Source: an uncultured Gammaproteobacteria bacterium
Lineage (GTDB): Bacteria > Patescibacteriota > Patescibacteriia > Magasanikbacterales > GWA2-37-8
Assembly (NCBI GenBank): GCA_964634875.1
Contig: CAZWKA010000006.1
Span: 12,173-76,172, forward strand
Length of the DNA stretch: 64,000 bases
Direction: 5' to 3'
Part shown: in pieces, positions 29,293 through 52,744 of the stretch
Numbering within the stretch: position 1 is the first letter of the stretch
How the letters are laid out: every line of letters starts with the position of its first letter
Notes under the pieces: model-generated
Databases searched by the model: none
Told to the model about the DNA's origin: nothing
Seen by the model: the letters and a program-made list of their open reading frames with translations, nothing else
Translations under genes and position numbers: made by a program

Positions 29293-29295
29293 TTA

Positions 29296-29305: not shown

Positions 29306-29315
29306 GCTTCGTTCC

Positions 29316-30852: not shown

Positions 30853-30941
30853 AATGTCAAAATTATATATATCATTTATAATCAATTTAGTCAAGCGATT
30901 ATTAAAAATGTAAAAATAATAGTAGTTATATTATTGACAAT

Positions 30942-32523: not shown

Positions 32524-32543
32524 TGTTTCACATGAAACATTTT
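32524..32543. repeat. Third TGTTTCAC-ATGAAACA-type palindrome overlapping the TrmB-3 stop codon; a fourth, perfect copy ttgtttcacgtgaaacaa lies inside the gene near 32690-32712
   Basis: tgtttcacatgaaaca. Confidence 0.8.
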
Positions 32544-33264
32544 AGTTTTTTATCGATTCCCACGCAAGATTAAACAAAGATCGATAGGTCTCAGCGACGT
32601 CACTGCTTTCAATTACTGTGGCGAGCGGTACATCTTTGTATGAGAATATAGCCAAACTATTTCCAAAAATAATGTTATCCGTTGGTAGTTTTGTTTCACG
32701 TGAAACAATTTTGATCTGATGAAATTGGGAGTTGTGTTCTTTGGCAAATTGCAGTGAGGCTTCGTCATAGGGCACTAAATCGCGCACGTGCATTTTTCGA
32801 TCTTCGATAATCTGTAAATATGGCCAAATTTTTTCAAGAACTTCGGGGTGAATGGCGTTAATTGATCCAAAAATATCGAGCTCATTCCAAGTGAAAATTT
32901 CACGGTAAAGGGCTGTAAGGCTTTCAACTCCTTGATAATAACGAATTTTTGGTTTCTCCTTTTTTGAGTTATACAAAGCAGCTAATTCAGGAATAGCCTC
33001 CTTGAGCAGGTGGCTGCGTTGTCGTTCCTCTTCGACCAGTCGTTCTGGTGATTCGGCAGCGTAGATCATGCGACGACCAGGTGTAATGCTTGCCAGCCCC
33101 CGCTCACGAAGTTCTTCCAAAATCAAATAGGTGGTTGGTCTTTTAGTTCCGGCCCGTTTTGACAATTGAGCAACCGAAGCACTGCCGGCCTGAAGAAGTG
33201 CAAGATAGACTTCTGCCTGTTTAGGATGCAGACCGAGTGTGGCAAGGGTTTTTGAGAGTTCCAT
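32542..33264 (-). CDS. TrmB-like transcriptional regulator (paralog 3)
   Basis: wHTH (..AEVYLALLQAGSASVAQLSKRAGTKRPTTYLILEELRERGL..); C-domain closely related to paralog 2 (KPKIRYYQGVESL.. vs KPKIRFYEGIDQI..). Confidence 0.75.
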   Translation of the reverse strand: MELSKTLATLGLHPKQAEVYLALLQAGSASVAQLSKRAGTKRPTTYLILEELRERGLASITPGRRMIYAAESPERLVEEERQRSHLLKEAIPELAALYNSKKEKPKIRYYQGVESLTALYREIFTWNELDIFGSINAIHPEVLEKIWPYLQIIEDRKMHVRDLVPYDEASLQFAKEHNSQFHQIKIVSRETKLPTDNIIFGNSLAIFSYKDVPLATVIESSDVAETYRSLFNLAWESIKN

Positions 33265-36206: not shown

Positions 36207-36221
36207 ACTTGTTTGTTGTGT

Positions 36222-36851
36222 ATGCTTAAAAGAATTTTTGGTAGTCTCCTCGCCGTGCTGCTTCTCGGTTTTCCCGTGGCATCGCTGGCTTTTATGTCGT
36301 CGACTAATTTCCAAATTATTTCTGACACAATTGGAGTCGGCGGCGGTCTTAGTACGAGCACGTCGTATGGTTTGCAAGATACGCTTGGCACTATCTCGAT
36401 TGGCATTGTCAGCAGCACAAGCTATCGGATCATTGGGGGGTTCCAAACAAGTGAATCAAACGGTATTACCCTTCAAGTCAACAATACCTCACTCAATCTG
36501 GGTACCCTAAGTTCGAGCATGGTGAGTTCGGCCAATACCACGGCCACTGTCACGACGGACGCCCCAACGGGGTATACCTTATCTGTCGGGGCTGTTACCG
36601 GTACGAGCGTCACCCCGGTAGCTGATGGCTCTATTACTGCCGGGTCTGAAGAGTATGGTCTTACTACTACTGGCGCCGAGAGTTTGGTTTCGACTGATGT
36701 GGCAGTTACCAATGGTTTAAATTTAGCCAGTTCCGCAGCGGCAATTACCGGTAGCGCAACAATGATTGTTTTTAAAGCCTCTATTTCGAGTGCATCTGCG
36801 CAGGCGACATATAGTCAGAATATTACACTGACTGCGGCCAGTAACCCTTAA
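36222..36851 (+). CDS. Secreted Ser/Thr-rich surface protein, possibly a divergent WxL-like domain protein
   Basis: Signal peptide; C-terminus ..ATYSQNITLTAASNP resembles the terminal WxL motif pattern (Y..[IV]T[WL]TL...P); ATG at 36222 (the ORF-track start is TTG). Confidence 0.45.
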   Translation: MLKRIFGSLLAVLLLGFPVASLAFMSSTNFQIISDTIGVGGGLSTSTSYGLQDTLGTISIGIVSSTSYRIIGGFQTSESNGITLQVNNTSLNLGTLSSSMVSSANTTATVTTDAPTGYTLSVGAVTGTSVTPVADGSITAGSEEYGLTTTGAESLVSTDVAVTNGLNLASSAAAITGSATMIVFKASISSASAQATYSQNITLTAASNP

Positions 36852-36857
36852 AATGGT

Positions 36858-37790
36858 ATGCGTGCATTTTTTTTAAAAATTATCGGAATCAGCTTCCTTC
36901 TTGGAGGTTTTGTTGTGCAAGAAGCGCAGGCGCTTTCACTCAGCCCGTCCCGAGGGGTTATTACGGTTGACCCAGGTGTGACCGGCGACGTGGTTGTCAA
37001 CTTTACGAATGATGAGGAGGCAAAAGTAATTTTGCAATTAGGTGTTACGGGCCTTAAGCAGGATCAAGCCGGTCGGCCTATTTTTGGGGCAGGTTTTGAC
37101 GCTGCCGAATCTTGGGTTGTGCCGGAAAAGAGCGATATTGAACTTGGCCCGGGCGAACGACAAGCTATAATTTTTAAAGTAACTGTCCCTCCCGGTGCCA
37201 CACCTGGCTCACATTGGGTAGCCTTGGCTGCCGAAACCCGTCCAGGAGTTGGCGGGAGTGCTGTTGTGAACAGTCGCTTAGTAAGCCTTTTGGCAATCCA
37301 AGTTGCTGGTGTGGTGACGGAAGACCTTTCCCTCGACGCCAAACTTGAGGAGCATGTTGCTGTTGGTGGCGAAACTTTGCCGCTCTCTGTGCAGTTGCTT
37401 AATAATGGCAATATTGAAGTACCGCTTGTCGGTAAAGTAACTTTCCGTTCACTGTCTGGTCGGGAACTAAAAACCACTCCATTTATTGTCGGCAATCAAT
37501 TACTGCCTCAGGCTGAACGTACGGTTGAATATGCTGTCGTCGCGGGTAGGAATAAACAGTGTGCTGCAGAATCGAACACGTCTCTTTGTGCTGAGCTGTT
37601 TTGGCCAGGTTTGTATAAAATGACCACGAGCATTACCTATGGAAAAACTCAGCAAGTAGTGGTGGGCGAAGAATCTTTTTGGTATCTGCCACTCTGGAGT
37701 TTGGGTGGCGGCATTGTTCTTGTTGGGCTTGTTGTCTTTAGTGTCCGTAAGGTGCGCCGTCGTAGCATGTTTCAAAAGTATGTTTCGTAA
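36858..37790 (+). CDS. CscA/DUF916-DUF3324-like cell-surface protein with a C-terminal TM anchor and basic tail
   Basis: Signal peptide, beta-rich ectodomain, C-terminal ..LGGGIVLVGLVVFSVRKVRRRS. Confidence 0.55.
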   Translation: MRAFFLKIIGISFLLGGFVVQEAQALSLSPSRGVITVDPGVTGDVVVNFTNDEEAKVILQLGVTGLKQDQAGRPIFGAGFDAAESWVVPEKSDIELGPGERQAIIFKVTVPPGATPGSHWVALAAETRPGVGGSAVVNSRLVSLLAIQVAGVVTEDLSLDAKLEEHVAVGGETLPLSVQLLNNGNIEVPLVGKVTFRSLSGRELKTTPFIVGNQLLPQAERTVEYAVVAGRNKQCAAESNTSLCAELFWPGLYKMTTSITYGKTQQVVVGEESFWYLPLWSLGGGIVLVGLVVFSVRKVRRRSMFQKYVS

Positions 37791-40749
37791 ATTTTTAAGT
37801 TTTATCCTCATCTGTAGTTTGTTCGCCACCGGCGCAATTTTTCAGGTTGCTCAGGCTCAGACTGATACTGAGGGTATTACTGTTGGTGCAACTGTACCTG
37901 CTGCGCCAACAGACGGCGGGGGCGGGGGCGGTGGAGGAGGTGGAGGAGGTACGACCGACCCTACACCAACCCCAGAGCCGGTCGACACTGCTCCGGTTAT
38001 TACCAATGTTGTCTCAGTCCCTGATTTTAGGGATGCGCTCATAAGTTGGTCGGCTACGGATGACAAGGGTATCAGCATGAGTTCGTTTGTGTATGGTACA
38101 ACCATGGCCTACGGCAGTGCCGGCAGTATTACAGGTACATACCAAGTGATGTTATCGGGTCTCGCTACTGACACGCTTTATTTTTTTAAAATCACTGTTA
38201 CCGATACAGGTAATCATACTACTGAATCAACCGGTTCTTTCAAAACTAAATCAGAAACCGACACGAGCGCCCCTACGATTAGCAATGTTCAAGTCGTCAG
38301 CGGAGTAACGAGCGCCACAATTACTTGGGATACCAATGAAGTTTCCGACAGCCAAGTGCAATACGGCACCACAGCTGCTTACGGAAGCCGTGCGACCGAC
38401 ACCAACGCAGTCACGGCACACAGTGTGGTAATCCTTGGTCTTGATCCTAATACGACATACCACTTTCGGGTGATCTCAACCGATGCAAACGGTAATAGTG
38501 GTTCGAGTACTGACGATACCTTTAAAACGCTTAAAAAAACAGTTCCTCCGCCTGATGTCAGTAATGTAAGTGTTGCGCCAGTTAACGAAGCGCTGGTCGT
38601 GCGCTGGGAAAACCCGGGCGACATCGCTGCCCCTGATTTTGCTGGCGTCAGGATTATTCGTAAAATTGGCAGCCGCCCCGTGAATTTGGCAGATGGTGTC
38701 GAAGTCTACCGTGGCAGTGGGCAAATGTTTACGGATAACGGTGTCACGACTAACGTGCGCTATTTTTACACGCTTTTTTCTTTTGATACATCAGATAATT
38801 TTAGTGCTGGTGTTTTTGGGGATGGTGAGGTACCGGCCCGGCCTGGTCAAGAAGTCTGTGATAATGGACAAGATGATGATGCTAATGGGCAAGTTGATTG
38901 TGCTGACGCCACGTGTTCACTGGCGACTGCCTGTGTTGCTCCCCCAACCCCGGGTGAGCCGACGACACCAACAACTACCCCAAGCGAGCCCGGCACTGAG
39001 CCTCCAGTTGTTGTCCCGTCGTCCACTGTTCCGGTTTTTTTGAAAATTGGTTTAGAAACGTTGCGTTTTTCGGCTGCCAGCCGCACTCTCGTGCTTGAGC
39101 GAAAGAACGAGTACATATCTAATTTGGCTGGTTTTAACTTCACGGTGTCGCTCCCAAGAAACGTTTTATCGAAAGATCCGGAAGGAATAACAGTAGTTGT
39201 TGATGGGAGCGATCAGCACCAAATGTCGTATAACCCAGCGGATGGTTTGTATTATACGGATTTTGTTTTTCCGCCAGCAGGGCCACATCAATCCTATCTT
39301 CAAATTGATTACGGTGCTGGTGAGATCGACACCGTACCGTTTATTTTAGACAGCCGTTCTATCGGGCACGTGTTTGGCGATAAAAATGTCCCCGTGCGTG
39401 GAGCCAAGATAACCTTGCTCCTCGAAAACGGCACACCTTTTTCACTGCAGCCGTACCAACAAAACAACCCGCTAACCACCGGCGAGGAAGGAGCATTTGG
39501 TTGGGTGGTTCCCAACGGTCGGTATTATGCCAAAATCTCTGCTGCGGGGCGGTATGACTATAGCGTACCGCTGCAAAATATTACTAATAATGTTTTTGCT
39601 TTGAACGTCACGCTCATTACTATACCACCGACCCTCGCAGAAGTGATTGATTTTAATAAGCCGCTCGGTGAAAACATTAAAAATGTCGGAAAAAACCTAG
39701 CTGCCAAAACACAGGCAGCAGCTCAGGTGCTGAATAATTTAACTAATAACCCACAGATCGAGAAAGCTGCTAGCGACATTATCGCTCCGACAGCTGTTGG
39801 TATTATCGCAGTGAGTGTCGCGCCGCTTATCTCCTGGCTTGACCTATTGCCGCTGCTCCGATTGGTTTTTTTGCAACCCGTCCTTCTTATCGGCCGCAAG
39901 AAACGCCAAGGTTGGGGGCAAGTGTATAACTCGCTCAGTAAGCTTCCAGTTGATTTGGCGATCATCCGTCTGGTTGATTTTAAGACGGGCAAAGTAGTGC
40001 AATCGCGTGTTACGGATAAAAACGGTCGCTACTATTTTACGGTCAACCCCGGTAACTATCGCTTAGAAGTTTTGAAAGAAAAGATGATTTTCCCTTCGGT
40101 TTTATTGCGCGGGTTTGCGACTGACGGCACCAAGGCTGATATTTACCATGGTGAACAGGTATCCATTAAAGAAAAGGATCCCATCATCACCGCTAACATT
40201 CCACTCGATCCGAGTGGTGATAATAAAACGCCGCGCCGGTTGGTGTGGGAAAAAATTGGTAAAAAAGTGCAGGTTATTTTGTCCTGGTTTGGTTTGGCCG
40301 TAACGGCTGTTTCGCTGTACATTTCACCTAAATGGTACGTTGCCGCCCTGTTGGTTGGACATGTGGCAATGTTTTTTATCTTCCGACGCCTGGCGTTGCC
40401 ACCCAAGCCCAAGAGTTGGGGTATTGTCTATGATGCCAAGACCAAAACACCGGTCACGCGCGCGGTGGCCCGACTATTTAGCTCACAGTTCAACAAGCTG
40501 GTTTCTACTCAGATTACTGATGCCCGTGGCCGTTATTATTTCCTGGCTGGGGATAATCGATATTATGTCACTTATGATCACAAAGAGTATGAGCCCGCTA
40601 AAACTAATTTAATTGATTTAAGTGGAAAGGAAGTCGCGACAATCGGTTCGAATGTAGGATTGGTTAAGAAAGGTTTGCAGTCAACGTCTCAGCAAAATAC
40701 AGAAAAACCTAATGATACTGTGTCTATGAAAAAATACACTAGTCCTTAA
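37780..40749 (+). CDS. Large surface protein: signal peptide, poly-Gly linker, FN3-like domains, carboxypeptidase-regulatory-like domains, C-terminal TM helices
   Basis: Start at the MFRKF ATG (11-nt overlap with the upstream gene); GGGGGGGGGGGG run; FN3-like ..TWDTNEVSDSQVQYGTTAAYG..YHFRV..; ..TDKNGRYYFTVNPGNYRLEV.. Confidence 0.75.
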   Translation: MFRKFLSFILICSLFATGAIFQVAQAQTDTEGITVGATVPAAPTDGGGGGGGGGGGGTTDPTPTPEPVDTAPVITNVVSVPDFRDALISWSATDDKGISMSSFVYGTTMAYGSAGSITGTYQVMLSGLATDTLYFFKITVTDTGNHTTESTGSFKTKSETDTSAPTISNVQVVSGVTSATITWDTNEVSDSQVQYGTTAAYGSRATDTNAVTAHSVVILGLDPNTTYHFRVISTDANGNSGSSTDDTFKTLKKTVPPPDVSNVSVAPVNEALVVRWENPGDIAAPDFAGVRIIRKIGSRPVNLADGVEVYRGSGQMFTDNGVTTNVRYFYTLFSFDTSDNFSAGVFGDGEVPARPGQEVCDNGQDDDANGQVDCADATCSLATACVAPPTPGEPTTPTTTPSEPGTEPPVVVPSSTVPVFLKIGLETLRFSAASRTLVLERKNEYISNLAGFNFTVSLPRNVLSKDPEGITVVVDGSDQHQMSYNPADGLYYTDFVFPPAGPHQSYLQIDYGAGEIDTVPFILDSRSIGHVFGDKNVPVRGAKITLLLENGTPFSLQPYQQNNPLTTGEEGAFGWVVPNGRYYAKISAAGRYDYSVPLQNITNNVFALNVTLITIPPTLAEVIDFNKPLGENIKNVGKNLAAKTQAAAQVLNNLTNNPQIEKAASDIIAPTAVGIIAVSVAPLISWLDLLPLLRLVFLQPVLLIGRKKRQGWGQVYNSLSKLPVDLAIIRLVDFKTGKVVQSRVTDKNGRYYFTVNPGNYRLEVLKEKMIFPSVLLRGFATDGTKADIYHGEQVSIKEKDPIITANIPLDPSGDNKTPRRLVWEKIGKKVQVILSWFGLAVTAVSLYISPKWYVAALLVGHVAMFFIFRRLALPPKPKSWGIVYDAKTKTPVTRAVARLFSSQFNKLVSTQITDARGRYYFLAGDNRYYVTYDHKEYEPAKTNLIDLSGKEVATIGSNVGLVKKGLQSTSQQNTEKPNDTVSMKKYTSP
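37918..37953 (+). repeat. GGN codon repeat encoding 12 consecutive Gly
   Basis: gacggcgggggcgggggcggtggaggaggtggaggaggt. Confidence 0.8.
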
Positions 40750-40754
40750 ACCAC

Positions 40755-43700
40755 ATGTTTCGTTTAAGACAAAAACATTTCAAGTCAAAACTTTTCCAAG
40801 CCCTTATGGGTCTCGGAGTGTTTTTGTTTTTTACAACCGCTTTCATTTTTTCTTACAGTCCAGCTGAGGCCGCTCCGACGGGTCCAAGCATTTTTACGTA
40901 CCAAGGCAAACTCTTAAGCAGTGCTAATGCGCCGATCAGTACGGCCGTCATGATGAAATTTGTTTTGTACGATTCGCTGACTGACGGTGCCGCTTTGTAT
41001 AGTGCTGCGGGGACACCGGGGGCACCAACCGCCGTAAGTATTACCCCCTCAAGCGGTATTTTCAGTGTTAATTTGGGTGGGACTGATACTAATCCAGTTG
41101 ATTCGGGTATTTTTAGAGATAATCCGGCTGTGTATCTGGAAGTTACGGTTGGTGCAGAAACTCTGACGCCGCGCAAACAGATTACAGCAAGCCCCTATGC
41201 CTTTAATGCTTTGTACCTCGATGGACAGAGTCTGGATACGAATTCGACCACTGCCTACATTCCACTCTCCGACGACCAAGGAAACTTTCGGTTTAATAAT
41301 ATAACTAGTACCGCCTTTTTCGTTACTGGTACAAGTACGTTAGCCACGACAACGATTAATAGTTCAACTATTACCAATGCAAATGTTACTAACCTCACGG
41401 TTAATGGCACCGTTTCATTTCTGAGTAATTCGTTGTCGGATGCCATGATTCCAGACACGATTACCGCGAGTAATTATTTGTTACTTGCTGGTGGTACCCT
41501 TGGTGGCGATCTGGCCTTTGGAGGCAATGATATCACGGGGCTCAATGATTTGAGTTTGAACGGCACCTTGACGAACAGTGGTCTAACACTGCTCGCGGGC
41601 GGTTTTATCGCCTCCGCTTCGTCAACCGTCAACGCCCAGCTCAATGTTCAAGGGCCGCTCAGCGCCTCTTCAACTCTTGTTGTAGCGGCCACTTCAACGT
41701 TCGCAACAGGGGTTGGTATCGCTACTTCGTCGCCGTTGGCTGCCCTTACTATCCAAGACGGTAGCATTTTAGCTGTCGGGAGCGCCGGTGGCACACCGTA
41801 CCAAGGGCCTGGTACACGACTAATGTGGGTTCCTAATAAAGCCGCTTTCAGAGCCGGATACGTTAATGGCTCACAGTGGGATGCTGCAAACATTGGTATT
41901 TACTCCACAGCATTCGGTGAAAATAATCAGGTGTCAGGTGACCGCGCGTTTGCGGGCGGTGCTGGCAATACTGTGAGTCAAACGGCCTCGGTTGCCTTTG
42001 GTGGTAGTAATACGGTAAGTGTTACTTATTCGGGCGCATTTGGTTTAAGTAATATAATTAACGGCGGCGGTGGCGGTTTCGCCTTTGGTATGAACAACAC
42101 GGTGAGTGGAGCGAGTTCTGCAATTGCCCTGGGTACAGGTAACAGTTCTGCTGGGGGCAGCGGTTCAACTGCTATTGGAAGTGCCAACAGCGCAGGTGGA
42201 ACAACAGCGATTGCTCTGGGTTCAAATATGTCGGTCAGTGGAAATAATTCAGTTGGTATCGGGCTTGATACAAATAATCGAACTCTGTCTCGAAACAATA
42301 CATTGGCGATTATGGGTGGCAATGTTGGTATTGGCACGTTGACCCCAGGTTATTTACTTTCGGTAAGCGGAACGCTGGCAGTCAGTGCTACCTCCACATT
42401 TGTCACTACAACTGCGGTGAGTTCTACAATTGAAACAGCTAATATCGCTTCGTTGTTTGCTAATACAGCAACAATTACCTCGCTCACTGTTACCAATTGT
42501 ACCGGGTGCGGTGGAGGGGTTTCGCTGGCTGCTAATCAGACTTTTACTGGTTTAAATACTTTTGCGGCAACCACAACGCTTGCAACTACTACGATTGGGG
42601 GAAGTCTTACTCCTTCAACCACTAACTTTTACGACTTAGGCACTTCTTCCACGCAGTGGAGATATTTAAATGTTTACGGAGGTGTTTTTCAGGCGGATGG
42701 TGTCACCACGTCTTCTTTAGAACAGCATCAACTCATTCTTGGTCAAGCTGTGGGGTATGATAAAGGTAAATTCTATATTGATGCCAGCGGCAATATTAGT
42801 GCTTCTGGCTCACTTCGGCTTGCCGGCAATGTTTTGCCATCTGCGCGGCCATCGTTTACAGTGACAGCGCGTACTACAAGTACGCTGAGTTCGGTTTTTG
42901 ATGCGGGTGGTGGAGGAGACAGAAATATTTCAATGGTAATTAATGCTGACGGTTTTCCTATAGTAGCTTTTACTGCCAATGCCAATGATTTACGGGTAGT
43001 AAAATGTGGAAACGCTGATTGCTCGGCAGGGAATATAGACACGGTTGTTGCTGTAAATGATGTAATCGGTCAGTCAAATTCTATGGCACTTGGATCCGAT
43101 GGCTTGCCAGTTATTGCGTATCAAGGCGCTGGCAGTGGAAGCGTGCACGTTATTCACTGTGGTAATTTGGCGTGTAGTAGTGGAAATACCACCACTGATG
43201 TTAACGGATCAAATCAAGGAACATACTTATCGTTGGCGATTGGTATTGATGGAATGCCTGGAATTGCTGTTTTTGACGTGAATAATGATGTTCGGTATAT
43301 CAAGTGTCTCAATTTGACCTGTTCGGCCAGTCAAGACAATCCAGTGGATGTTTCCGCAACTATTTCAACAGGTCATTATATTTCGTTGGCCATCGCCAAT
43401 AACGGTTATCCAATGATGGCATATTATAATCCAGATAAAACATCTTTGGACTACGCGCTTTGTGGCGATCCTGCTTGCAGCGATCGAGCCAAAATTACCA
43501 CAACTACAGTAGATAACACTGCTGACCAAGGGCAGTATGTTTCTTTGGCTGTTGGTTCAGATGGTCTTCCGGTTATGTCGTACCGCGACCCAACCTTTAA
43601 TCGTCTTATCGTGACGCGTTGCTTTAGCATGCTGTGCAATGGCGCAACAGATGGGGCAGTTTTGTCTAGTGGCGACTATGCAGGAGCAGGTATATACAGT

Positions 43701-46013
43701 TCAATTGAAATTGGTGTGGATGGTTTTCCGCTGGTGGCGCATCGCGCAAGCGGAATTGCTGGTTTGATGATGTTTAAATGTAATAGTGTTGGGTGTCTTA
43801 GCCCTACGTCAACTGTTCTCGATACACAAAATAGTCAAGCGGGATGGTATCCAAGTTTAGCAATTGGCGCAGACGGAGTGCCTATTGTTGCCTATTTTAC
43901 AGATGTTGGTAACGGCGAGCTTCATTTTTTAAAGTGTGCCGGGTATGATTGTGGAGCAACAACAACCCCAATTTTTACGGGCGGCTCAAATCTGGGTACT
44001 ACCGAAAATTATTTTAACAATGTGTATGCCAACCAGTTTTGGGGAAAAAAGTTTAAGGTTGCTGCTTTTGATGTGGCCGAAGAATATCCCACACTCGACG
44101 CCACGCTTGTAGCGGGTGAAGTTGTTGCGTTTGACGAAAATGCTCCCGGGTATGTAAAGCGAGCGACAGACAGCAACAAAGTGATTGGTATCATTTCAAC
44201 AAAACCAGGTTTATTGTTATCGGAATGGGAAAATGATGCTTCGAATGCAATGCAGGTGCCGGTCGCGCTTTCTGGTCGGGTGCCGCTACGTGTGCGGGCG
44301 GACAATGGTGCTATTTATGTTGGCGATTATTTACAGCTATCTGCAATACCCGGTGTGGCTGAAAAATCATCAGGCGATAAACCAACAATTGGTATTGCTA
44401 TGGATGTGTTTGAAGGTGTTGGAACTGGATCAGTAATGACGTTTGTAAATCTTGACGCCAGTGGAAGTGGTAGTGTCTATAATTCACTTACCGCAAGCGG
44501 TCAAAACGATAAAGTTATCATTGGTACAACGAGTACTCCTTATTCTCTTGAACTTAATGGTAACTTTTCAGTCGTCGATCCGTCGCTTGCCCGCCTGACG
44601 TTCTCGACCACAACACTTCTGACAATTAATGTCCCTGATTTCGAAAATGCAAAAGCGCTTATTTTAAACGCACCAAACTTCACACCGAACAGTGCGCCTG
44701 ATCGCATACTCTTTTCACTTCGTTCTCAAGATATTCCAGTATTTTCAGTCAGCGCCAACGGAGACGTTAATGCCCTAGGTAATTATTATGGCCAAAGCGC
44801 TACGTTTGGTTCGTCGACTAATCCCGGCGACTTAGCTGAACGAGTGGATATTGCCGGGGACGACCAAGTTGAAGCGGGGGATGTCATGATTGTTGATCCT
44901 AATAGTCCAGACACTTACAGGCGCAGCAATAGCTCATACGACCAAGCGGTCGCAGGTGTGATTTCAAGTAACCCGACCATTGTGGTCGGCCGCGGTAAGA
45001 CTGATTACACCGCCAATCTTGCTATGGTCGGACGAGTGCCAGTAAAGGTAAACAACCAAAATGGTTCAATTGCCCGCGGTGACTTGCTTGTTGCTTCCGC
45101 AAAAACAGGTGAGGCAATGAAGTATGACCCGGCACTTGATGTTAGTTCCAAAATGGTTGGTGTTATTGGTATCGCACTCGATCCGCTTACAGCAGAACAA
45201 GGTAAAGTAATGGCTCTTATTCGCACAGGTTGGGCTTACAGCCAGACCAAAACCTTGGCAGATCTGCAAACGACAATTGAAAGTGTGCTGGCAAGCAGTG
45301 GTGAAGGTCTGGGCGCTGACCTTGAAAAAATAGGTGTAGAAAGTTCGGCCGGTAATCTTGGGTATAGTAACGGAGACCTAAACCTTGGCGGCAATTCGTT
45401 GCTTGGAGTAAGTGTTGTCCGCAGTAAAAATAATACCTGGGAAATTGACGGTGAAGGTCGGATGCGAGCCAAGAGTATCACGGTTGAACAGGTTATTACC
45501 GGCGAATTGGTGGTTACACCAGGTGCTGACCCTAAAAAAACGACTATTGGTGAAGCAATGGTTGCTAAAGGTCAAACGAGCGTAGTGGTAGAGAATGCTG
45601 TGTTTACAACCACTACTAAAATTTTTATCACCTTTGTTGATAATCCGAAGCACTTTTGGTGGGTCTCCAAAAAGGAAGCAGGAGCATTTACAGTTTCATT
45701 TGATGCTGCCGCAGCGGATGATGCAGTTTTTGACTACTGGCTTATTCCCACTACGGCTGTTGATAACTTAACGGTGCCACCTTCAACCGCGGTACCGGCT
45801 CCGGAAGCTCCTCCAGATATTCCGCCAGCTGAAAGTGAGGGTGGTATCACAACCTCCACCCTCGAGGAAGATGAGAATAATGCTGGGTTAAGCGTTAATT
45901 CGACCACGAGCACTGTTATTGATCTGCCTGCCGAACCAAGCCCAGACTCCGGGCCCACATCGAGTTCAAATGATTTTGAAGGATCTGAATCGGAACCAGC
46001 TCAAGACCCTTAA
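40755..46013 (+). CDS. Giant secreted adhesin-like protein 1 (1752 aa) with YadA-head (Hep/Hag)-like repeats and six paired-Cys blade repeats
   Basis: Signal peptide; ..SVAFGGSNTVS..AIALGTGNSS..STAIGSANSAGG..; repeats like DGLPVIAYQGAGSGSVHVIHCGNLACSSGN; acidic Ser/Thr-rich tail. Confidence 0.85.
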   Translation: MFRLRQKHFKSKLFQALMGLGVFLFFTTAFIFSYSPAEAAPTGPSIFTYQGKLLSSANAPISTAVMMKFVLYDSLTDGAALYSAAGTPGAPTAVSITPSSGIFSVNLGGTDTNPVDSGIFRDNPAVYLEVTVGAETLTPRKQITASPYAFNALYLDGQSLDTNSTTAYIPLSDDQGNFRFNNITSTAFFVTGTSTLATTTINSSTITNANVTNLTVNGTVSFLSNSLSDAMIPDTITASNYLLLAGGTLGGDLAFGGNDITGLNDLSLNGTLTNSGLTLLAGGFIASASSTVNAQLNVQGPLSASSTLVVAATSTFATGVGIATSSPLAALTIQDGSILAVGSAGGTPYQGPGTRLMWVPNKAAFRAGYVNGSQWDAANIGIYSTAFGENNQVSGDRAFAGGAGNTVSQTASVAFGGSNTVSVTYSGAFGLSNIINGGGGGFAFGMNNTVSGASSAIALGTGNSSAGGSGSTAIGSANSAGGTTAIALGSNMSVSGNNSVGIGLDTNNRTLSRNNTLAIMGGNVGIGTLTPGYLLSVSGTLAVSATSTFVTTTAVSSTIETANIASLFANTATITSLTVTNCTGCGGGVSLAANQTFTGLNTFAATTTLATTTIGGSLTPSTTNFYDLGTSSTQWRYLNVYGGVFQADGVTTSSLEQHQLILGQAVGYDKGKFYIDASGNISASGSLRLAGNVLPSARPSFTVTARTTSTLSSVFDAGGGGDRNISMVINADGFPIVAFTANANDLRVVKCGNADCSAGNIDTVVAVNDVIGQSNSMALGSDGLPVIAYQGAGSGSVHVIHCGNLACSSGNTTTDVNGSNQGTYLSLAIGIDGMPGIAVFDVNNDVRYIKCLNLTCSASQDNPVDVSATISTGHYISLAIANNGYPMMAYYNPDKTSLDYALCGDPACSDRAKITTTTVDNTADQGQYVSLAVGSDGLPVMSYRDPTFNRLIVTRCFSMLCNGATDGAVLSSGDYAGAGIYSSIEIGVDGFPLVAHRASGIAGLMMFKCNSVGCLSPTSTVLDTQNSQAGWYPSLAIGADGVPIVAYFTDVGNGELHFLKCAGYDCGATTTPIFTGGSNLGTTENYFNNVYANQFWGKKFKVAAFDVAEEYPTLDATLVAGEVVAFDENAPGYVKRATDSNKVIGIISTKPGLLLSEWENDASNAMQVPVALSGRVPLRVRADNGAIYVGDYLQLSAIPGVAEKSSGDKPTIGIAMDVFEGVGTGSVMTFVNLDASGSGSVYNSLTASGQNDKVIIGTTSTPYSLELNGNFSVVDPSLARLTFSTTTLLTINVPDFENAKALILNAPNFTPNSAPDRILFSLRSQDIPVFSVSANGDVNALGNYYGQSATFGSSTNPGDLAERVDIAGDDQVEAGDVMIVDPNSPDTYRRSNSSYDQAVAGVISSNPTIVVGRGKTDYTANLAMVGRVPVKVNNQNGSIARGDLLVASAKTGEAMKYDPALDVSSKMVGVIGIALDPLTAEQGKVMALIRTGWAYSQTKTLADLQTTIESVLASSGEGLGADLEKIGVESSAGNLGYSNGDLNLGGNSLLGVSVVRSKNNTWEIDGEGRMRAKSITVEQVITGELVVTPGADPKKTTIGEAMVAKGQTSVVVENAVFTTTTKIFITFVDNPKHFWWVSKKEAGAFTVSFDAAAADDAVFDYWLIPTTAVDNLTVPPSTAVPAPEAPPDIPPAESEGGITTSTLEEDENNAGLSVNSTTSTVIDLPAEPSPDSGPTSSSNDFEGSESEPAQDP
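44540..45250 (+). repeat. About 0.7-kb block nearly identical at nucleotide level to 50260-50970 in the second giant gene
   Basis: For example ggccaaagcgctacgtttggttcgtcgactaatcccggcgacttagctgaacgagtggatattgc vs 50511-50575. Confidence 0.8.
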
Positions 46014-46094
46014 AGTTTCTGCTTTTCTGTGGTATAGTCCCCAAGTCTAGATGACTGACAGCTACTCTAAGCTGCCAGAATTTAGGCTTAGTGT

Positions 46095-49000
46095 ATGGGT
46101 CAAAAAAATATATTTCAAAACTCCGCTATATTGAGCCGGGTATTTTTACCCATCGGCTTATTTTTGTTTTTTTTGGGAGCGCTTTTTTACTCGCAAATAG
46201 CCGTACAAGCGGCTCCTGCAGCACCGCCGTCCATAGTCAGTTATCAGGGTAAAATCCTGGATGATACCAACAGTCCGATCTCGACGGCTTTAAATATCAA
46301 GTTTTTACTCTACGATGCCCAAACTGCCGGAAATGTGCTCTATACTGCAGCGGGTACCCTTGCTACCCCAACGGCTCTGAGTATTACCCCCTCAAGCGGT
46401 ATTTTTGTGGTTAATTTAGGGGATGCCGACACTAATCCGATCGAGCCTTCTATTTTTAAGAATAATACTAACGTCTACCTTGAAGTTGTGGTGGGTGCCG
46501 AAACCTTGTCGCCACGTCGGCAAATTACCGCCGCTCCTTATGCCCTCAATGCGCTTGCCCTGAATGGATATAGTTTAGAAACTGTCTCGAGCTCCGCCTA
46601 TATTCCGCTCAGCGATGCTCAAGGAAGGTTCCAGTTTAATGGTGTTACTAGCACCAACCTTGTAGCAACGGGCACAAGTACGCTCGCCACCACTACTATT
46701 GTTAGCACTACGATTGCTCAGGCAAATATCACTAACCTGGCGATCAACGGCACTGTAACAGGCCTTTCGCTTGGGTCACTGAGCGGCACAGGCGTCTTAG
46801 CGTTTATTGCTAATTCACAAACGTTTAGCGGTGCCAATACTTTTAGCGCCACTACTACTTTTACCACTTCGACCATAGCTTCAAGCACGCTGACCCAGGC
46901 CAACATCATGGCGCTCACGGTTAACGGCACACTTTCGCTCCCGGCCAACAGTGTCACCGACTTTATGATTCCGGACACGATCACAGCCGCTAATTATTTA
47001 CTCCTAACCGGCGGCACTCTGGCTGGCAACTTGGCTTTGGGAAATAACAATATTAGCGGGATCAACGATCTCAGTCTTGGTGGTACCCTAACCAACAGCG
47101 GGGTTAGTATTTTTACCAGTGGTTTTATTGCTCCAGCTTCGAGCACTGTTGGTGGCCAGCTCCATGCAAATGGCCCTGTGTACGCTTCGTCAACGCTTGA
47201 CGTCGACGGCCGCGCCCTCTTTTCAAGCGGCTTTATCGCCAACAGCGCTTCAACCATTAATGCTGGACTGGCGATTGGTGACACTTTAAGTGTTGGGGCT
47301 ACCTCAACGTTCACCACCACCACCATGGCAAGTTCTTCGATTGCCAATGCCAATATTGGAAATCTGGTGGTCAACGGTACGTGTAGTGGCTGTTTATCGG
47401 GGGCGGCACTGCTCGCAGCCAACCAAACATTCACAGGTACAAATATTTTTTCAGTCACAACAACCTTTAGTGCCACATCTTCTTTTTCACAGGCGCTAGG
47501 CATAGCAACGACAACGCCGTCAGCACAGTTGACCTTAAATGGTGGAAACATTTTAGCAATTGGAACCTATGTGGGTTCAGGGGCGGTTCCGTATAGTGGA
47601 GTTGGTACGCGGCTCATGTGGATACCAAGCCGAGCGGCATTCCGGGCTGGCTATGTGAACGGTTCGCAGTGGGATGCCGCTAATGTGGGCGTCTATTCAG
47701 CTGCTTTTGGTGAAAATAATACAGTGTCGGGTGATCGTGCATTCGCAGCTGGAACCGGTAATACGGTCAGCCAGACAGGCTCGGTTGCTTTTGGTGGAAG
47801 TAATACCGTTTCAGTTACGTATTCAGCAGCTTTTGGTGCTAGTAATATTATTAATGCGGGCGGAGGTGGCTTTGCTGTCGGTCTAAGCAATACGGTCAGT
47901 GGAGCAAGTTCGGCAGCAGCTATTGGTACTGGTAATACATCGGCGGGTGGAACTGGCTCGACTGCTATTGGTGCAAATAATAGCGCAGGTGGAACTTCCG
48001 CCATTGCTTTGGGTTCAAGAATTTCAGTAAGTGGAAACAATTCGGTTGGTATTGGTCTTGATACAAACTCTCGCACACTCTCACAAAACAATACGCTGGC
48101 TATTATGGGCGGAAACGTTGGTATTGGCACGTTGGCACCTGGGTATACGCTTGCGGTAACCGGTACGCTCGCAGTAAGTGCAACGTCTACGTTTGCGACC
48201 ACCACCATGGCGAGTTCAACGATTGTTAGCCTTAATGCAACCAATGGATATATTGGTACTTTGACAGTTGGTTCGTGTACTGGTTGCGGAGCAGCTGCGG
48301 CCGGCGCTTCTTTGACCGACAATCAGAATTTTACTGGTTTCAATACTTTTTCAGCAACCACTACTTTTACCAATAGATCGGGTATAGTTATTAATACCAG
48401 CACTGCGTATGCTCTGGGCAGGCTTCATATTGATCCTTCAGGAAATATTTTTACTTCCGGCACTATTCAGCTTGCAGGGAACCTCATGCCGCTACGCGGT
48501 GTCGCTACTTCAACGGCAATTGCCGCCTCAGCAACGAGTACCAGCAGCACCCTGGCTTCAGTAGGGGACACAGGCCAGAACCCGGCCGCAATGGTTGGTG
48601 GCGACGGTTTTCCAATCATAGCCTATTATTCTTCTTCAACACACGGCTTAATGATACTTCACTGCACCAGTGTTAATTGTAGTTCGTCGGATGCACCCAT
48701 CCAGATTGATGGGCTCGATGAAGATGTTGGGGTGCAGCCTTCGATTGCTTTGGGTCAAGACGGTTTTCCGGTAATGACCTATTACAGTGTAACGAGTACG
48801 AACCTTCGTTTTGCTAAATGTTATAATTTTAGTTGTTCTCAGGTTACTACGACGACGATTGATGCAACCGCTAACACCGGCTACTATTCATCGGTCGTTA
48901 TTGGTGTTGATGGTAATCCGATTGTTGCGTATCAACGAACGGGTCAGCTCTATGTGCTACAATGCTTTACCGCAGACTGTTCAAGTGTAAGTACTCCAGC

Positions 49001-51731
49001 TTTTGTTAATAATGGGGGGTATTACGTAAAAATGGTTCAGGCCCCCGATGGTTTGCCTGTTATGGTTCACTACGATCCCAGCTTTGGAAATTTTTATGGC
49101 GGGAAATGTCGGGGTACCGGTTGCGCTACTTCATCTGAGTATCCTAGTTTTGGAACAATTGCTTTCATGAATAATGCGCAGGCGTATAATGGTTTTGCGG
49201 GTTTAGCTATGGGTACAAATGGTGTGGCGGTCGCTAGTTATTATGATCGTTTTAATCATACAGTATATGTCGCTCGATGTAGCGCGTCCAATAACTGTAG
49301 TTCATGGTCAAATACAACCATTGATTCTGATGTAGGGTTTCACGCCCTGCCACCCGATGGCGGAGCTTGGACTTCGATGACTATCGGAGCAGATGGAAAT
49401 CCTGTGGTCTTCTATCATCGGTTTGTTGGTACCGACGCTAGCCCCTTTATATACCGCTGCGTAGATAACAACTGTGTACAAACGAGCGCTAAACCAATCT
49501 CCGCTGGCTCATATGATGGTTTTAATTATGTCCGTGGCACATCTTTGATAAAAGCCCAGAACGGTGAGCTCATTGCTTTTATGTACAAACAAGATACGGG
49601 CGATTTGGTCTTGTGGCGGGGGTGTGCCCAGAATAGCGATGTGTTTGGGACGGGTGGGTGTACGCAAGTCGTCGCGTATTCAGGTTCTTCACTGGGTTCG
49701 CGCGGCCAATATTTTTATCAAATTTATTCCCGAGAGATCTACGCACAACAGGCGTATCTCTCTGGGTTTGACCTTGCAGAATCATATTTAACCGATGATG
49801 CGACTTTGGTGCCGGGTGAAGTTGTGGCGCTCGATCAAAATAATCCTAACAAAGTAATTAAAGCCGATAGTGTTAACTATCCATTAGCTATCGGTATAGT
49901 TTCAACTAAACCCGGTCTTTTGTTGACTGAATGGTCGGATGATGACCCGATATTTACCAGTACTACGCGAAAAGTTTCTTTGGCGCTCGCAGGTCGTGTG
50001 CCGCTCAAGGTGTCAGGCAGTAATGGTCCGATCGTGATTGGTGATAAACTTTCCGCCTCGACAATTCCTGGTGTTGCCGTCAAGGCATTGCCCGGAAGCA
50101 TAACGATTGGTGTGGCTATGGAAAACTTTGCCGGAGGCATGGGTACGATCACAACATTTGTTAATGTTGATTCGTCTGGTGCGAATGGCTCGCAGGTAAA
50201 AGGAGCATTAACCATCGATACAACCCAGAAAAATATTATTGTTGGCTCAACTACTACCCCGTACAGTTTTTCTTTGAACGGTAATCTGTCTTTGCTCTCA
50301 ACTTCGATGAACACGCTTTCTTTTGCAACGACGACGCTGCTCACGACTAGTATTCCTGACTTTGAAAACGCAAAAGCCTTTATTTTAAATGCCCAGAATT
50401 TTTCACCAACCAGCACTCCTGACCGTATTCTTTTTTCACTTCGTTCACATGATACACCGGTATTTTCAGTTAGTGCTAATGGTGATGTTAACGCAGCCGG
50501 TAATTATTATGGCCAAAGTGCTACGTTTGGTTCGTCGACTAACCCTGGTGACTTAGCTGAACGAGTGGATATTGCTGCAGACGATGTTGTAGAAGCGGGA
50601 GATGTCATGATTGTTGACCCGTATAGTCCAGACACCTATCGAAGAAGCGCTGAAGCGTATGATGGGCGGGTCGCCGGGGTTATCTCGAGTAATCCGACAA
50701 TCGTAGTCGGCAGGGGAAAAACTGACCATACAGCCAACCTGGCAATGGTGGGCCGTGTTCCGATTAAGGTGGTAAACGAAAATGGTTCAGTTAACCGAGG
50801 CGACCTGCTCGTCGCTTCATCAAAGCCGGGATATGCCATGAAATATGATCCTACGCTTGATAACAGTCAGAAGATGGTCGGGGTTATTGGTGTCGCGCTC
50901 GATCCACTTATGGCAGAACAGGGAAAAGTCATGGCGCTTATCAGGACTGGTTGGGCGTATAGCCAAACTAAAAATATTAGTTCGTTGCAAACCACAATAG
51001 AACAACTTGTTTCTGTTCAAGGAATTAATCTGGATGAAAATACCGAGGATCTTAAAGTTTCACAAAAAGACGGCTCGCTGGTGTATGAAGGAGGAAATCT
51101 AGATCTACGTGGTAATAAAATTTTAAACGTGGCTTCGATTGGAGGAAAAGAAAATGCGTGGTCAATTGATGAAGGAGGGCGCTTTATCACCCAATTAATC
51201 ACATCGGTCGGAACGCAAAGTATGTATGCACTACAGTCGCCTGCTTCGGAATTTGTTTTCTCAAGCTCGTCGCAGCTAGTTGCTGGCGAAGCGCGAATAA
51301 TTTTTGATCAAGCGGTACAAGAAATAATTGATCCGACGACGCCGCTTAAAGTGAGTGTTACCCTGACATCCTCGGGTGTCGGTGGTGTCTATGTCAGTGA
51401 AAAAACAGCCCAAGGGTTTGTGGTTATGCAGCTCGGTGGAACGGGCGGTGCAGCGACGTTTGACTGGGTTGTGGTAGCGAAACGACGCGAAGAGAATGCG
51501 ATAGCTCCACCTACAGATTCAGAGGCTCAGAAGGTCGACGCTCTTCTTGAGAAAGATGAAGAAACAGGTGCGCCGCCGGAACAAGCTGCTACCAGCTCAG
51601 CGAGTGTTGAAGAAGCGCTGGGTATGAGTGAAGCGGGGCTTACTACCACCTCTTCGACGGAGCTCGGCACTGAATCTAGCACAGCGACCTCTTCAATTCC
51701 CGCAAATGAAATTCAGACGCAAGCGCAATAA
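46095..51731 (+). CDS. Giant secreted adhesin-like protein 2 (1878 aa), mosaic paralog of the preceding gene
   Basis: N-terminal, Hep/Hag and C-terminal blocks about 85% identical to gene 1; different central paired-Cys repeat region. Confidence 0.85.
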   Translation: MGQKNIFQNSAILSRVFLPIGLFLFFLGALFYSQIAVQAAPAAPPSIVSYQGKILDDTNSPISTALNIKFLLYDAQTAGNVLYTAAGTLATPTALSITPSSGIFVVNLGDADTNPIEPSIFKNNTNVYLEVVVGAETLSPRRQITAAPYALNALALNGYSLETVSSSAYIPLSDAQGRFQFNGVTSTNLVATGTSTLATTTIVSTTIAQANITNLAINGTVTGLSLGSLSGTGVLAFIANSQTFSGANTFSATTTFTTSTIASSTLTQANIMALTVNGTLSLPANSVTDFMIPDTITAANYLLLTGGTLAGNLALGNNNISGINDLSLGGTLTNSGVSIFTSGFIAPASSTVGGQLHANGPVYASSTLDVDGRALFSSGFIANSASTINAGLAIGDTLSVGATSTFTTTTMASSSIANANIGNLVVNGTCSGCLSGAALLAANQTFTGTNIFSVTTTFSATSSFSQALGIATTTPSAQLTLNGGNILAIGTYVGSGAVPYSGVGTRLMWIPSRAAFRAGYVNGSQWDAANVGVYSAAFGENNTVSGDRAFAAGTGNTVSQTGSVAFGGSNTVSVTYSAAFGASNIINAGGGGFAVGLSNTVSGASSAAAIGTGNTSAGGTGSTAIGANNSAGGTSAIALGSRISVSGNNSVGIGLDTNSRTLSQNNTLAIMGGNVGIGTLAPGYTLAVTGTLAVSATSTFATTTMASSTIVSLNATNGYIGTLTVGSCTGCGAAAAGASLTDNQNFTGFNTFSATTTFTNRSGIVINTSTAYALGRLHIDPSGNIFTSGTIQLAGNLMPLRGVATSTAIAASATSTSSTLASVGDTGQNPAAMVGGDGFPIIAYYSSSTHGLMILHCTSVNCSSSDAPIQIDGLDEDVGVQPSIALGQDGFPVMTYYSVTSTNLRFAKCYNFSCSQVTTTTIDATANTGYYSSVVIGVDGNPIVAYQRTGQLYVLQCFTADCSSVSTPAFVNNGGYYVKMVQAPDGLPVMVHYDPSFGNFYGGKCRGTGCATSSEYPSFGTIAFMNNAQAYNGFAGLAMGTNGVAVASYYDRFNHTVYVARCSASNNCSSWSNTTIDSDVGFHALPPDGGAWTSMTIGADGNPVVFYHRFVGTDASPFIYRCVDNNCVQTSAKPISAGSYDGFNYVRGTSLIKAQNGELIAFMYKQDTGDLVLWRGCAQNSDVFGTGGCTQVVAYSGSSLGSRGQYFYQIYSREIYAQQAYLSGFDLAESYLTDDATLVPGEVVALDQNNPNKVIKADSVNYPLAIGIVSTKPGLLLTEWSDDDPIFTSTTRKVSLALAGRVPLKVSGSNGPIVIGDKLSASTIPGVAVKALPGSITIGVAMENFAGGMGTITTFVNVDSSGANGSQVKGALTIDTTQKNIIVGSTTTPYSFSLNGNLSLLSTSMNTLSFATTTLLTTSIPDFENAKAFILNAQNFSPTSTPDRILFSLRSHDTPVFSVSANGDVNAAGNYYGQSATFGSSTNPGDLAERVDIAADDVVEAGDVMIVDPYSPDTYRRSAEAYDGRVAGVISSNPTIVVGRGKTDHTANLAMVGRVPIKVVNENGSVNRGDLLVASSKPGYAMKYDPTLDNSQKMVGVIGVALDPLMAEQGKVMALIRTGWAYSQTKNISSLQTTIEQLVSVQGINLDENTEDLKVSQKDGSLVYEGGNLDLRGNKILNVASIGGKENAWSIDEGGRFITQLITSVGTQSMYALQSPASEFVFSSSSQLVAGEARIIFDQAVQEIIDPTTPLKVSVTLTSSGVGGVYVSEKTAQGFVVMQLGGTGGAATFDWVVVAKRREENAIAPPTDSEAQKVDALLEKDEETGAPPEQAATSSASVEEALGMSEAGLTTTSSTELGTESSTATSSIPANEIQTQAQ

Positions 51732-51823: not shown

Positions 51824-52744
51824 TTAGGGACATGATTTAGTCCCAATCGTGAAGTCGACAGGAGGAAGCGTCTGTGCCACACCTGTTTCATCAAGGTATT
51901 CAACCTGCCAGAAGTAGCGAATACACCGTCCGGGATAGGCGTTCGACTTCGACGGCGGAAGAGCCTTGCGTGGAATCGTGAAGTAAGTGTGGATCACACC
52001 CGTTTTGGCGTATGTATCACACTTGTCTTCGATGTAGTTGCGGATTGGCTTTCCGTTCTCGTCAGCGTAGCTAACGGTGCCATTCTCGAACGTAGTCTCG
52101 GCCCAGAGCAGCGTGTGGAGGAGCTCTCGAGCCTGCCAGCCAAGCGATACACGTAGGGTGAAGCCTGTCGGCAGTTCGTAGCCGCAATCTACAGCTGGAT
52201 CCTGGGGTACCTCGACCACATTGTGTTCAAGTTCTGGTAGCCACCCGCCTTTGATTGGAACGGTGCGAGGCCACTCCACATCAACGAGGTCGAGGCGTTT
52301 ACCGCTTTTGAAGTCGAGTGTCCAGACGCCGCGTCGAGGACTGGCGTTCGTTGCGCTGCCAATCCCCACGCTCACGGCGAGCGGGTCGAAGATGTCGAGG
52401 CCGTGGTAGCCGTAGGCCAGATTGTTCAGAGCCCCTTCTGCATTGCAGTCAGAGCTCCAGCCGCAAAAGAACACGACGCCATTCTTGCCGGCTTGTTCCC
52501 CTTCCGGTGTATAGCCGGGCTGCCCCATCTTCTCTTTGTGCAAGGTGAGAGGGTCGGCAGTATCGATGCCGTTTACAGCCAGATACAAGGCATGGCTCCG
52601 TGTGCTGTTGCTAAGCTTTAGATCCAAAGGAAGTGGCTGTTGCCCCGCGGCATTCACTCGCAGCTCGTTAAGCAGCTCATGCATGGCTGATTCGTCTAGG
52701 GTGCAACCTGTCAGCGTAAGAAGAATCACGATAGATGCTTTCAT
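51824..52744 (-). CDS. Predicted lipoprotein (306 aa) in high-GC island 6
   Basis: MKASIVILLTLTGCT lipobox; GACGGAG Shine-Dalgarno; about 60% GC. Confidence 0.55.
   Translation of the reverse strand: MKASIVILLTLTGCTLDESAMHELLNELRVNAAGQQPLPLDLKLSNSTRSHALYLAVNGIDTADPLTLHKEKMGQPGYTPEGEQAGKNGVVFFCGWSSDCNAEGALNNLAYGYHGLDIFDPLAVSVGIGSATNASPRRGVWTLDFKSGKRLDLVDVEWPRTVPIKGGWLPELEHNVVEVPQDPAVDCGYELPTGFTLRVSLGWQARELLHTLLWAETTFENGTVSYADENGKPIRNYIEDKCDTYAKTGVIHTYFTIPRKALPPSKSNAYPGRCIRYFWQVEYLDETGVAQTLPPVDFTIGTKSCP

Follow-up and report, generated by a model that had tools for sequence, protein, structure and literature searches.

Little is known about how the ultrasmall bacteria of the Candidate Phyla Radiation (CPR), which to our knowledge lack an outer membrane, find and hold their hosts. 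One CPR pilus outside the type IV class has been solved so far, the Pam pilus of Candidatus Mycosynbacter amalyticus (Troman et al., bioRxiv 10.64898/2026.03.03.709456), which is represented in NCBIfam by the models PamT (NF058579) and Pam_pilin_C (NF058581) and is reported mainly in Saccharimonadia and Microgenomatia. In that preprint PamC and PamD are described as FimC/PapD-like chaperones with a C-terminal transmembrane (TM) helix; PamR, in which an additional N-terminal strand accompanies FnIII domains and a TM helix, is proposed to plug the last pilin and to anchor the fibre; a conserved neighbour is a 'tail fibre-like protein'. The WxLIP proteins of Gram-positive bacteria combine a DUF916 domain, a DUF3324 domain, and a TM helix, and one of their hairpin strands is predicted to insert into the WxL protein (Hassan et al., 2023, PMC10599100); neither WxLIP nor DUF916 is mentioned in the Pam preprint. 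Here we describe a gene cluster at positions 33915-51731 of a stretch of DNA of 64,000 nucleotides (contig CAZWKA010000006.1; hereafter the window), which we read with moderate confidence as a Patescibacteria-specific, usher-less, chaperone-assisted system of surface fibre and adhesins, divergently related to the CPR Pam pilus. Its genes are denoted U and A to E.

33915-36206, + strand: U, first gene of the conserved cluster, a polytopic membrane protein of 763 residues with about 12 TM segments in the TM scan
36222-36851, + strand: A, 209 residues, pilin-like protein
36858-37790, + strand: B, 310 residues, chaperone candidate
37780-40749, + strand: C, 989 residues, putative anchor protein
40755-46013, + strand: D, 1752 residues, giant adhesin-like protein, either secreted or anchored at its N-terminus
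46095-51731, + strand: E, 1878 residues, giant adhesin-like protein

Conserved cluster, pilin-like subunit, and chaperone candidate

A scan with the B family, taking one genome per species, gave 16 loci in Patescibacteria, mostly named Magasanikbacteria, and synteny was assessed by comparing the six window proteins with the open reading frames (ORFs) of all fetched loci using phmmer. Genes U, A, and B are adjacent and co-directional in all 16 genomes, C follows them in at least 11, and at least one giant resembling D or E (900 to more than 3,200 residues) lies downstream in at least 12; C and the giants do not stand in a fixed order from genome to genome. The adjacency of U, A, and B indicates that the unit begins at U (33915) and not at 36222, and that its core is U-A-B(-C). 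A preliminary description of this DNA, made from the letters alone, had recognized an operon of five tightly packed or overlapping co-directional genes at 36222-51731; the five genes are indeed present there, all on the + strand, but the true start of the cluster lies one gene earlier. The spacing between U and A is 15 nucleotides, and the gaps A/B, B/C, C/D, and D/E amount to 6, -11, 5, and 81 nucleotides. The overlap of 11 nucleotides between the start of C and the end of B recurs in orthologs and also at a distant locus (L007), where a small secreted protein and a B-like protein are followed by an SdrD_B-like protein; at another distant locus (L005) the gene order is retained, but the protein encoded downstream is of the Big_6/dockerin type. 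The C-terminal part of U consists of TPR repeats, which match Pfam TPR families at 1e-19.

The product of A comprises a signal peptide (residues 1-24), an N-terminal extension (25-78) in which the strand motif S-(S/T)-x-(Y/F)-x-(I/L) occurs three times, and a beta domain resembling an incomplete immunoglobulin (Ig) fold (80-209). No Pfam family matches A and no PDB sequence matches the A-family profile. The NCBIfam model 'CPR-type pilus protein PamT' matches A with an E-value of 3e-14 and is matched by 18 of 20 A-family members (best 9e-17), and Pam_pilin_C ('Pam pilus system pilin subunit') is matched by 16 of the same 20 (best 1.5e-6); for A itself the matches to both models stay under the respective cut-offs. 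A profile search returned 121 relatives of about 205 residues, of which the few named ones come from Patescibacteria-type bacteria. In an AlphaFold model built from an alignment of 80 sequences, residues 80-209 have predicted local distance difference test (pLDDT) scores above 93, and residues 23-70 are modeled with low confidence although their sequence is conserved; the top structural neighbours listed for the model are mostly subunits of donor-strand filaments, including chaperone-usher pilins. By homology and fold resemblance, A appears to have the truncated Ig-like, donor-strand-accepting domain that characterizes Pam-type pilins. These sequence and model matches are weak but one-sided, and on them A is most aptly regarded as a pilin-like subunit of the Pam family that carries an N-terminal extension. 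It had been taken for a WxL-like protein from its terminal motif, ITLTAASNP, which contains no Trp. Neither A nor any of 19 relatives matches a WxL model at E-values up to 1 (0 of 20), and no WxL chain occurs among the top 50-60 fold matches listed per search for the A model. The WxL assignment of A was rejected; the family aligns with CPR Pam pilins instead.

In the product of B, a signal peptide is followed by two domains of the Ig-like type and, at the C-terminus, by a membrane helix (residues 279-309). The B sequence alone gives weak Ig-like Pfam matches only and falls below the Pfam cut-off for WxLIP; among 20 relatives of B, 16 match WxLIP_PGBD (PF06030, the former DUF916; best 6e-7) and one matches PapD_N. 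The B-family profile finds a Cellulomonas protein annotated as DUF916 (5e-7), aligns at 70 bits with a Clavibacter DUF916 protein over both domains and the TM helix, and has EfmWxLIP1 as its sole match among all PDB sequences (4e-4). The AlphaFold model of B (pLDDT 88.6) consists of two beta-sandwiches and a C-terminal helix, for which Foldseek ranks the Enterococcus faecium WxLIP structures 9i1y and 9i25 ('bound to long WxL') at the top, with E-values of about 2e-12, and the pilus chaperones CsuC, CfaA, YadV, and FimC next. The combination of DUF916, DUF3324, and C-terminal TM helix that defines WxLIP is remotely recognizable in B, and the model and fold of B also have the PapD/FimC-like form with C-terminal TM helix of the Pam chaperones, PamC and PamD being likened to it by description. 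B is consequently treated here as a candidate PapD-type two-domain chaperone and a remote homolog of WxLIP/DUF916 proteins, and the earlier assignment of the second gene as CscA/DUF916-like holds as a remote relationship.

A pair of genes outside the CPR was observed at 5170-6984 of Clavibacter phaseoli plasmid NZ_CP040796 (L026), where a secreted hypothetical protein of 208 residues is encoded directly upstream of a DUF916 gene. Its sizes and gene order recall the A-B pair, and the C-terminal ends are alike, with ...AGDYSSTITLSLFE in the small protein and ...ATYSQNITLTAASNP in A. As a relative of A or of WxL proteins the small protein was rejected, its comparisons with the profiles not being significant.

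The WxLIP matches of B could also mean that the products form a non-filamentous complex of the Csc/WxL type, as the preliminary description had suggested; B would then hold the small A and the large D and E on the envelope, in the manner envisaged for Firmicutes, and no polymerization would occur. Both the top structural matches of B and its sole PDB sequence match are WxLIP proteins, whose strand is predicted to enter the WxL partner (Hassan et al., 2023), and the Clavibacter plasmid shows the same order of small protein and WxLIP-like protein at its DUF916 gene, with endings of ...YSSTITLSLFE there and ...YSQNITLTAASNP in A. However, the definition of Csc demands two WxL proteins (Hassan et al., 2023), and two such proteins, with the dual Trp-x-Leu motif, are not found here: no WxL domain is detected in A and its 19 relatives, nor, with Pfam, in C, D, or E. 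In addition, the A family fits Pam pilin models and pilin folds, and the long conserved N-terminal extension of A is typical of polymerizing subunits. We consider a complex of this kind improbable, and the remark in the preliminary description that a Csc/WxL complex would be unusual in a CPR organism is now largely explained by the Pam preprint of 2026.

The N-terminus of C consists of a signal peptide and the strand GITVGATVP, followed by Gly12 and Pro/Thr linkers. FN3 domains (Pur_ac_phosph_N 7e-12, fn3 2e-7) are present, in agreement with the earlier account of the third gene as encoding an FN3/poly-Gly protein of 989 residues, together with an acidic double-disulfide repeat and four TM helices (667-705, 830-872) interleaved with CarboxypepD_reg/SdrD_B-like domains. 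An alternating-hydrophobic N-terminal strand with a Gly/Pro linker occurs in 10 of 11 inspected C-like ORFs (AITVGATVP, DINVQFTVP, and SVSVEMTVP, for example) and is absent from the ORF of L024. At L005 (9333-11929) the mature N-terminus of the A-like protein, STVTVSATVA, resembles the strand QSVSVTAKVP of the protein encoded after the B-like gene, and such near-equal strands are as expected for donor strands competing for one acceptor groove. FN3 domains, N-terminal strand, and TM helices recall a PamR-type anchor; C is, however, about three times larger than PamR, to which it is likened by description.

The giant proteins D and E

The modules recognized in the two giants are as follows.

40884-41309, + strand: N-terminal constant module of D (residues 44-185), present in every giant of related loci
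41793-42392, + strand: YadA-head-like beta-roll block of D (residues 347-546)
42873-43952, + strand: central module of D with seven repeats (residues 707-1066)
43962-44447, + strand: first tail-fibre-like beta domain of D (about residues 1070-1231)
44772-45224, + strand: second tail-fibre-like domain of D (about residues 1340-1490), inside D1314-1513
48531-49661, + strand: central module of E with seven repeats (residues 813-1189), the last Cys pair being C-x11-C
49770-51011, + strand: pair of tail-fibre-like beta domains of E (residues 1226-1382 and 1486-1639)

The overall identity of D and E is 45%, and their modules follow one another in the same order, E having the longer N-terminal stalk. 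The identity profile is mosaic, with 65% over D47-196, 83% over D347-546 (E498-697), 83% over D1314-1513, 20-30% in the centre of D, and 27% over its last approximately 240 residues. The scaffold is indeed conserved, and centre and tail are indeed divergent. The preliminary description had the giants right as mosaic paralogs with divergent centres and a strongly conserved YadA-head-like block, and overestimated their N-terminal identity, which is about 65% and not 85%. Its conserved 'C-terminal' block also exists, at 83%, but as the penultimate domain, the final 240 residues or so having diverged, and the nucleotide stretches 44540-45250 and 50260-50970 that it called near-identical are only 73-74% identical.

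Each giant has a single hydrophobic segment in the TM scan, at its N-terminus and about 20-22 residues long. The constant module of about 140 residues has 42 invariant columns in an alignment of 15 sequences and no PDB or Pfam relative, and it is followed by a stalk of Ser/Thr-rich repeats. Residues 378-505 of D match the head of the trimeric adhesin CbpF (PDB 9u93) with an E-value of 3e-6, the match of D to Pfam YadA_head (0.002) lying below the cut-off; the earlier characterization of the giants as adhesin-like, with a YadA-head-like segment, is supported. Farther along, residues 1070-1216 of D match PHROG 19602 ('tail fiber protein') at 1.4e-7, and the first of the two tail-fibre-like domains of D, which have about 130 residues each, is 33% identical to residues 1369-1489 (3e-12); the corresponding pair in E is 27% identical (1e-11) and matches PHROG 22593. 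Both giants end in a variable acidic Ser/Thr/Pro tail. No sortase motif, C-terminal TM helix, or S74 intramolecular chaperone domain was detected in either, and D and E, including their C-terminal pieces searched with Pfam, do not match YadA_anchor, the anchor of trimeric autotransporters. Antisense ORFs of up to 209 residues, rich in Ala, Pro, and Val (47693-48322, - strand, for example), were observed inside D and E; in all likelihood they merely reflect the Ser/Thr/Gly-rich frame on the sense strand and are not genes.

The central module of each giant is built from seven repeats of approximately 50 residues (about 48-62 each), which end in C-x4-C. The paired-Cys repeat had been recognized in the preliminary description, which counted six copies and could not place it in a known family. 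Its absence from Pfam and NCBIfam is confirmed: no match was found at E-values up to 10 in D and E, none in 10 other members, and the repeat profile has no PDB sequence relative. It is nevertheless far from unique, as an exhaustive HMMER search returned 7,711 repeat-bearing clusters at E-values up to 1e-3 and 1,577 at up to 1e-30. The proteins concerned have 386 to 7,237 residues, and the few with a known source come from Gracilibacteria, other Patescibacteria, and Actinomycetota; eight of ten examined are unnamed, 'hypothetical', or 'unannotated', and one has a domain-based name. A large uncurated family of this kind deserves a family definition. Seven repeats, each with four hydrophobic strand-like segments, suggest that the central module is a seven-bladed beta-propeller having one disulfide staple per blade.

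The contrast between scaffold and core had been attributed to cassette swapping or gene conversion. Within the two blocks of 83% protein identity, however, nucleotide identity is 72-73%, the proportion of synonymous differences is 0.71-0.73, and the synonymous divergence (dS) is above 2; no exact match between the DNA of D and E is longer than 26 nucleotides. Orthologs of D, with 1820 and 1828 residues, are present in L001 and L003. In these same two loci the E orthologs have N-termini that match E with higher scores than D, and the N-terminus of each giant groups with its own orthologs. Saturated synonymous sites, the short exact match, and the orthology kept in two species indicate an old paralogy under purifying selection and speak against recent exchange between D and E. 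Relative to its orthologs, D is least conserved at residues 701-1000 (27-50%) and in the tail (31-35%) and most conserved at residues 1301-1500 (82-86%). A diversity-generating retroelement was considered and rejected, there being no ORF with a YxDD reverse-transcriptase motif in the window. As to strain variation, the sole second copy of D in the databases has the same sequence with a later start codon.

Because D matches PHROG tail-fibre families at 1e-7 and C weakly matches tail protein families, D and E might be phage tail fibres in a prophage or tailocin remnant. The scanned flanks of the cluster are, however, housekeeping and regulatory and not of phage type, synteny is kept across 16 species, and all products have N-terminal signal-like segments, so that we regard a phage origin as highly improbable.

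It is also conceivable that D and E function independently of A, B, and C, as fibrillar adhesins standing on an uncleaved N-terminal signal-anchor, and that the linkage reflects co-regulation only. The length of the N-terminal hydrophobic segment (about 20-22 residues), the position of the constant module directly after it as a cell-proximal base, and the lack of a detectable pilin-like signal in D and E would be consistent with this arrangement, as would the relatives that have U-A-B-C with no adjacent giant and the varying order of C and the giants. On the other hand, an A-x-A-like motif is conserved before the invariant PSIITYQGK of the giants, which suggests that they are cleaved by signal peptidase; giants bearing the module lie downstream of the cluster in at least 12 of the 16 genomes, and in Saccharimonadia the pam operon likewise has a tail-fibre-like gene among its conserved neighbours. 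Full independence of the giants from the rest of the cluster is, in our judgment, unlikely.

Proposed assembly and genomic surroundings

In the chaperone-assisted fibre system that we favour, all products would be exported by Sec, in keeping with their N-terminal signal-like hydrophobic segments. B would reside in the cytoplasmic membrane by way of its C-terminal helix and would donate a strand into the open fold of A, a step modeled on PapD-type chaperones with their pilins and on the predicted WxLIP/WxL pairing. A would act as a small pilin, its incomplete Ig-like fold being recognized by similarity and its long extension at the N-terminus being modeled with low confidence, and would then be joined subunit to subunit by donor-strand exchange. 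C may tether the fibre to the membrane through its four membrane helices, its FN3 stalk, and an N-terminal strand on a poly-Gly leash, this strand plugging the cell-proximal subunit as proposed for PamR. D and E would be giant tail-fibre-like adhesins whose invariant N-terminal module docks to the cell or to the fibre, and whose divergent Cys-stapled seven-repeat modules and C-terminal tails bind different host-cell ligands. U, in the least certain step, might glycosylate the Ser/Thr-rich proteins or otherwise aid their assembly.

Several points weigh against this interpretation. A scores 53 bits against an equivalog cut-off of 240 for PamT, which makes it a homolog and not an ortholog; for B, C, D, and E there is no match to any Pam family of NCBIfam; and no two-domain pilin of the PamA/PamB type is found among the 17 window proteins scanned with NCBIfam. 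The match of U to Wzy_C (O-antigen ligase-like) is weak, at 0.0026, and below threshold. Both the binding of A by B and the polymerization of A are predictions from the sequences and models of single proteins. No sign of a physical link between D or E and A, B, or C was found; the N-terminal module of the giants gives no pilin-like profile signal (hhalign probability of 2% against the A family), and in three of the related genomes the 2-6 kb that can be read beyond C contain no giant.

The surroundings of the cluster are those of an ordinary chromosome, with the following neighbouring features.

1536-2933, - strand: dnaA (TIGR00362, 2e-157)
30106-30894, - strand: TrmB-family regulator
32542-33264, - strand: TrmB-family regulator nearer to the cluster, divergent from U across a spacer of 650 nucleotides
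51824-52744, - strand: putative lipoprotein of 306 residues, convergent with the end of E, containing several Cys and weakly matching the CAP/SCP family (0.0065)
59574-60116, - strand: GspM/PilO-like protein, about 8 kb downstream of the cluster
60715-61809, - strand: PilM (Pfam 5e-33)
61893-63008, - strand: PilC/T2SSF (7e-52)

The flanking genes scanned (phosphoribosyl pyrophosphate synthetase, the TrmB regulators, YchF downstream, and an ABC ATPase) are housekeeping or regulatory, and the window also holds trigger factor, a pyrophosphatase, and polA. The position of dnaA near the start of the window places the region not far from the origin of the chromosome, and the cumulative GC skew climbs steadily along the window. 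Both TrmB regulators are kept upstream of the cluster in its closest relatives (L001-L003), which makes them candidate regulators of it. Scans for promoters and terminators were uninformative, terminator-like sites occurring at chance level. GC content rises to 0.57 at 28001-30000, around phosphoribosyltransferase genes, compared with about 0.47 elsewhere; Rfam detects no RNA family in this GC-rich segment, and four tRNAs only in the window as a whole. A type IV pilus gene set on the - strand spans 59574-63982 and indicates that the organism has a second pilus system, unrelated to the cluster.

That the organism is a CPR bacterium, as first surmised from the sequence, agrees with the occurrence of related loci in genomes of Magasanikbacteria, the Parcubacteria group, and the Patescibacteria group. 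The window belongs to a contig of 81.9 kb in an unannotated NCBI metagenome assembly, and this contig has been assembled from run SRR12762304 as well. Records L009-L013, L015, and L024 are labelled 'uncultured Gammaproteobacteria bacterium', and their gene content fits Magasanikbacteria/Patescibacteria; on metagenome-assembled genomes carrying the CPR cluster this label is probably a placeholder or wrong taxonomy.

Comparison with known systems

Read as a fibre and adhesin system, the locus extends a Pam-like chaperone/pilin pair, in simpler form, to a Magasanikbacteria-like lineage, and it ties such a system to giant adhesins that would combine a constant docking module with divergent binding modules. 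The most interesting by-product is a CPR pilus chaperone type remotely homologous, as judged from profiles and models, to the Gram-positive WxLIP/DUF916 proteins, a link absent from the Pam preprint. A broader proposal, which we offer as tentative and on the doubtful side, is that Pam pili, actinobacterial DUF916 pairs, and Firmicute WxL/WxLIP (Csc) clusters belong to one ancient usher-less family of bacteria lacking an outer membrane, with membrane-tethered chaperones and kinship to chaperone-usher pili, and that at this locus the family is coupled to giant modular adhesins loaded onto the fibre by their N-terminal module. If this were true, WxL domains would represent degenerate acceptor domains of the pilin-like type, and the Csc 'complexes' would be short fibres.

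With trimeric autotransporters (YadA, UspA1, CbpF) and phage tail fibres, D and E share the YadA-head-like block of about 200 residues, Ser/Thr/Gly-rich stalks, and PHROG tail-fibre domains; unlike D and E, the trimeric autotransporters have no Cys-stapled seven-repeat module. The Firmicute WxL/Csc systems (PDB 9i1y, 9i25) resemble the cluster in the signal peptide, two Ig-like domains, and C-terminal TM helix of B and in gene order, a small secreted partner standing beside the WxLIP-like gene with large surface proteins nearby. They differ from it in that no WxL domain is detectable in the partners here, B lies under the Pfam threshold, and the envelope is that of a CPR bacterium.

Chaperone-usher pili (Csu, CFA/I, type 1, and P) share the incomplete Ig fold of A, the boomerang-chaperone-like fold of B, and the alternating-hydrophobic N-terminal strands of A and C. 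Here, in contrast, there is neither outer membrane nor usher (no cluster protein matches an usher family in Pfam or NCBIfam), the chaperone is membrane-tethered, and identities are 8-19%.

The Pam pilus differs in having the two-domain PamA, PamB, and PamE of 39-55 kDa where the locus has a single pilin of 209 residues; A has an N-terminal extension of about 50 residues that is absent from PamT as described, and C greatly exceeds PamR in size and contains four TM helices as well as additional domains. The cluster is further set apart by its leading Wzy_C/TPR gene, its two giant adhesins, and its Magasanikbacteria-like host, and among the window ORFs scanned none was recognized as an ATP synthase gene. 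The two systems have in common that they are CPR-restricted, Sec-exported, without usher, and neighboured by a tail-fibre-like gene, and that they combine a truncated-Ig pilin, a PapD/FimC-like chaperone with a C-terminal membrane helix, and probably an FnIII membrane anchor with an extra N-terminal strand.

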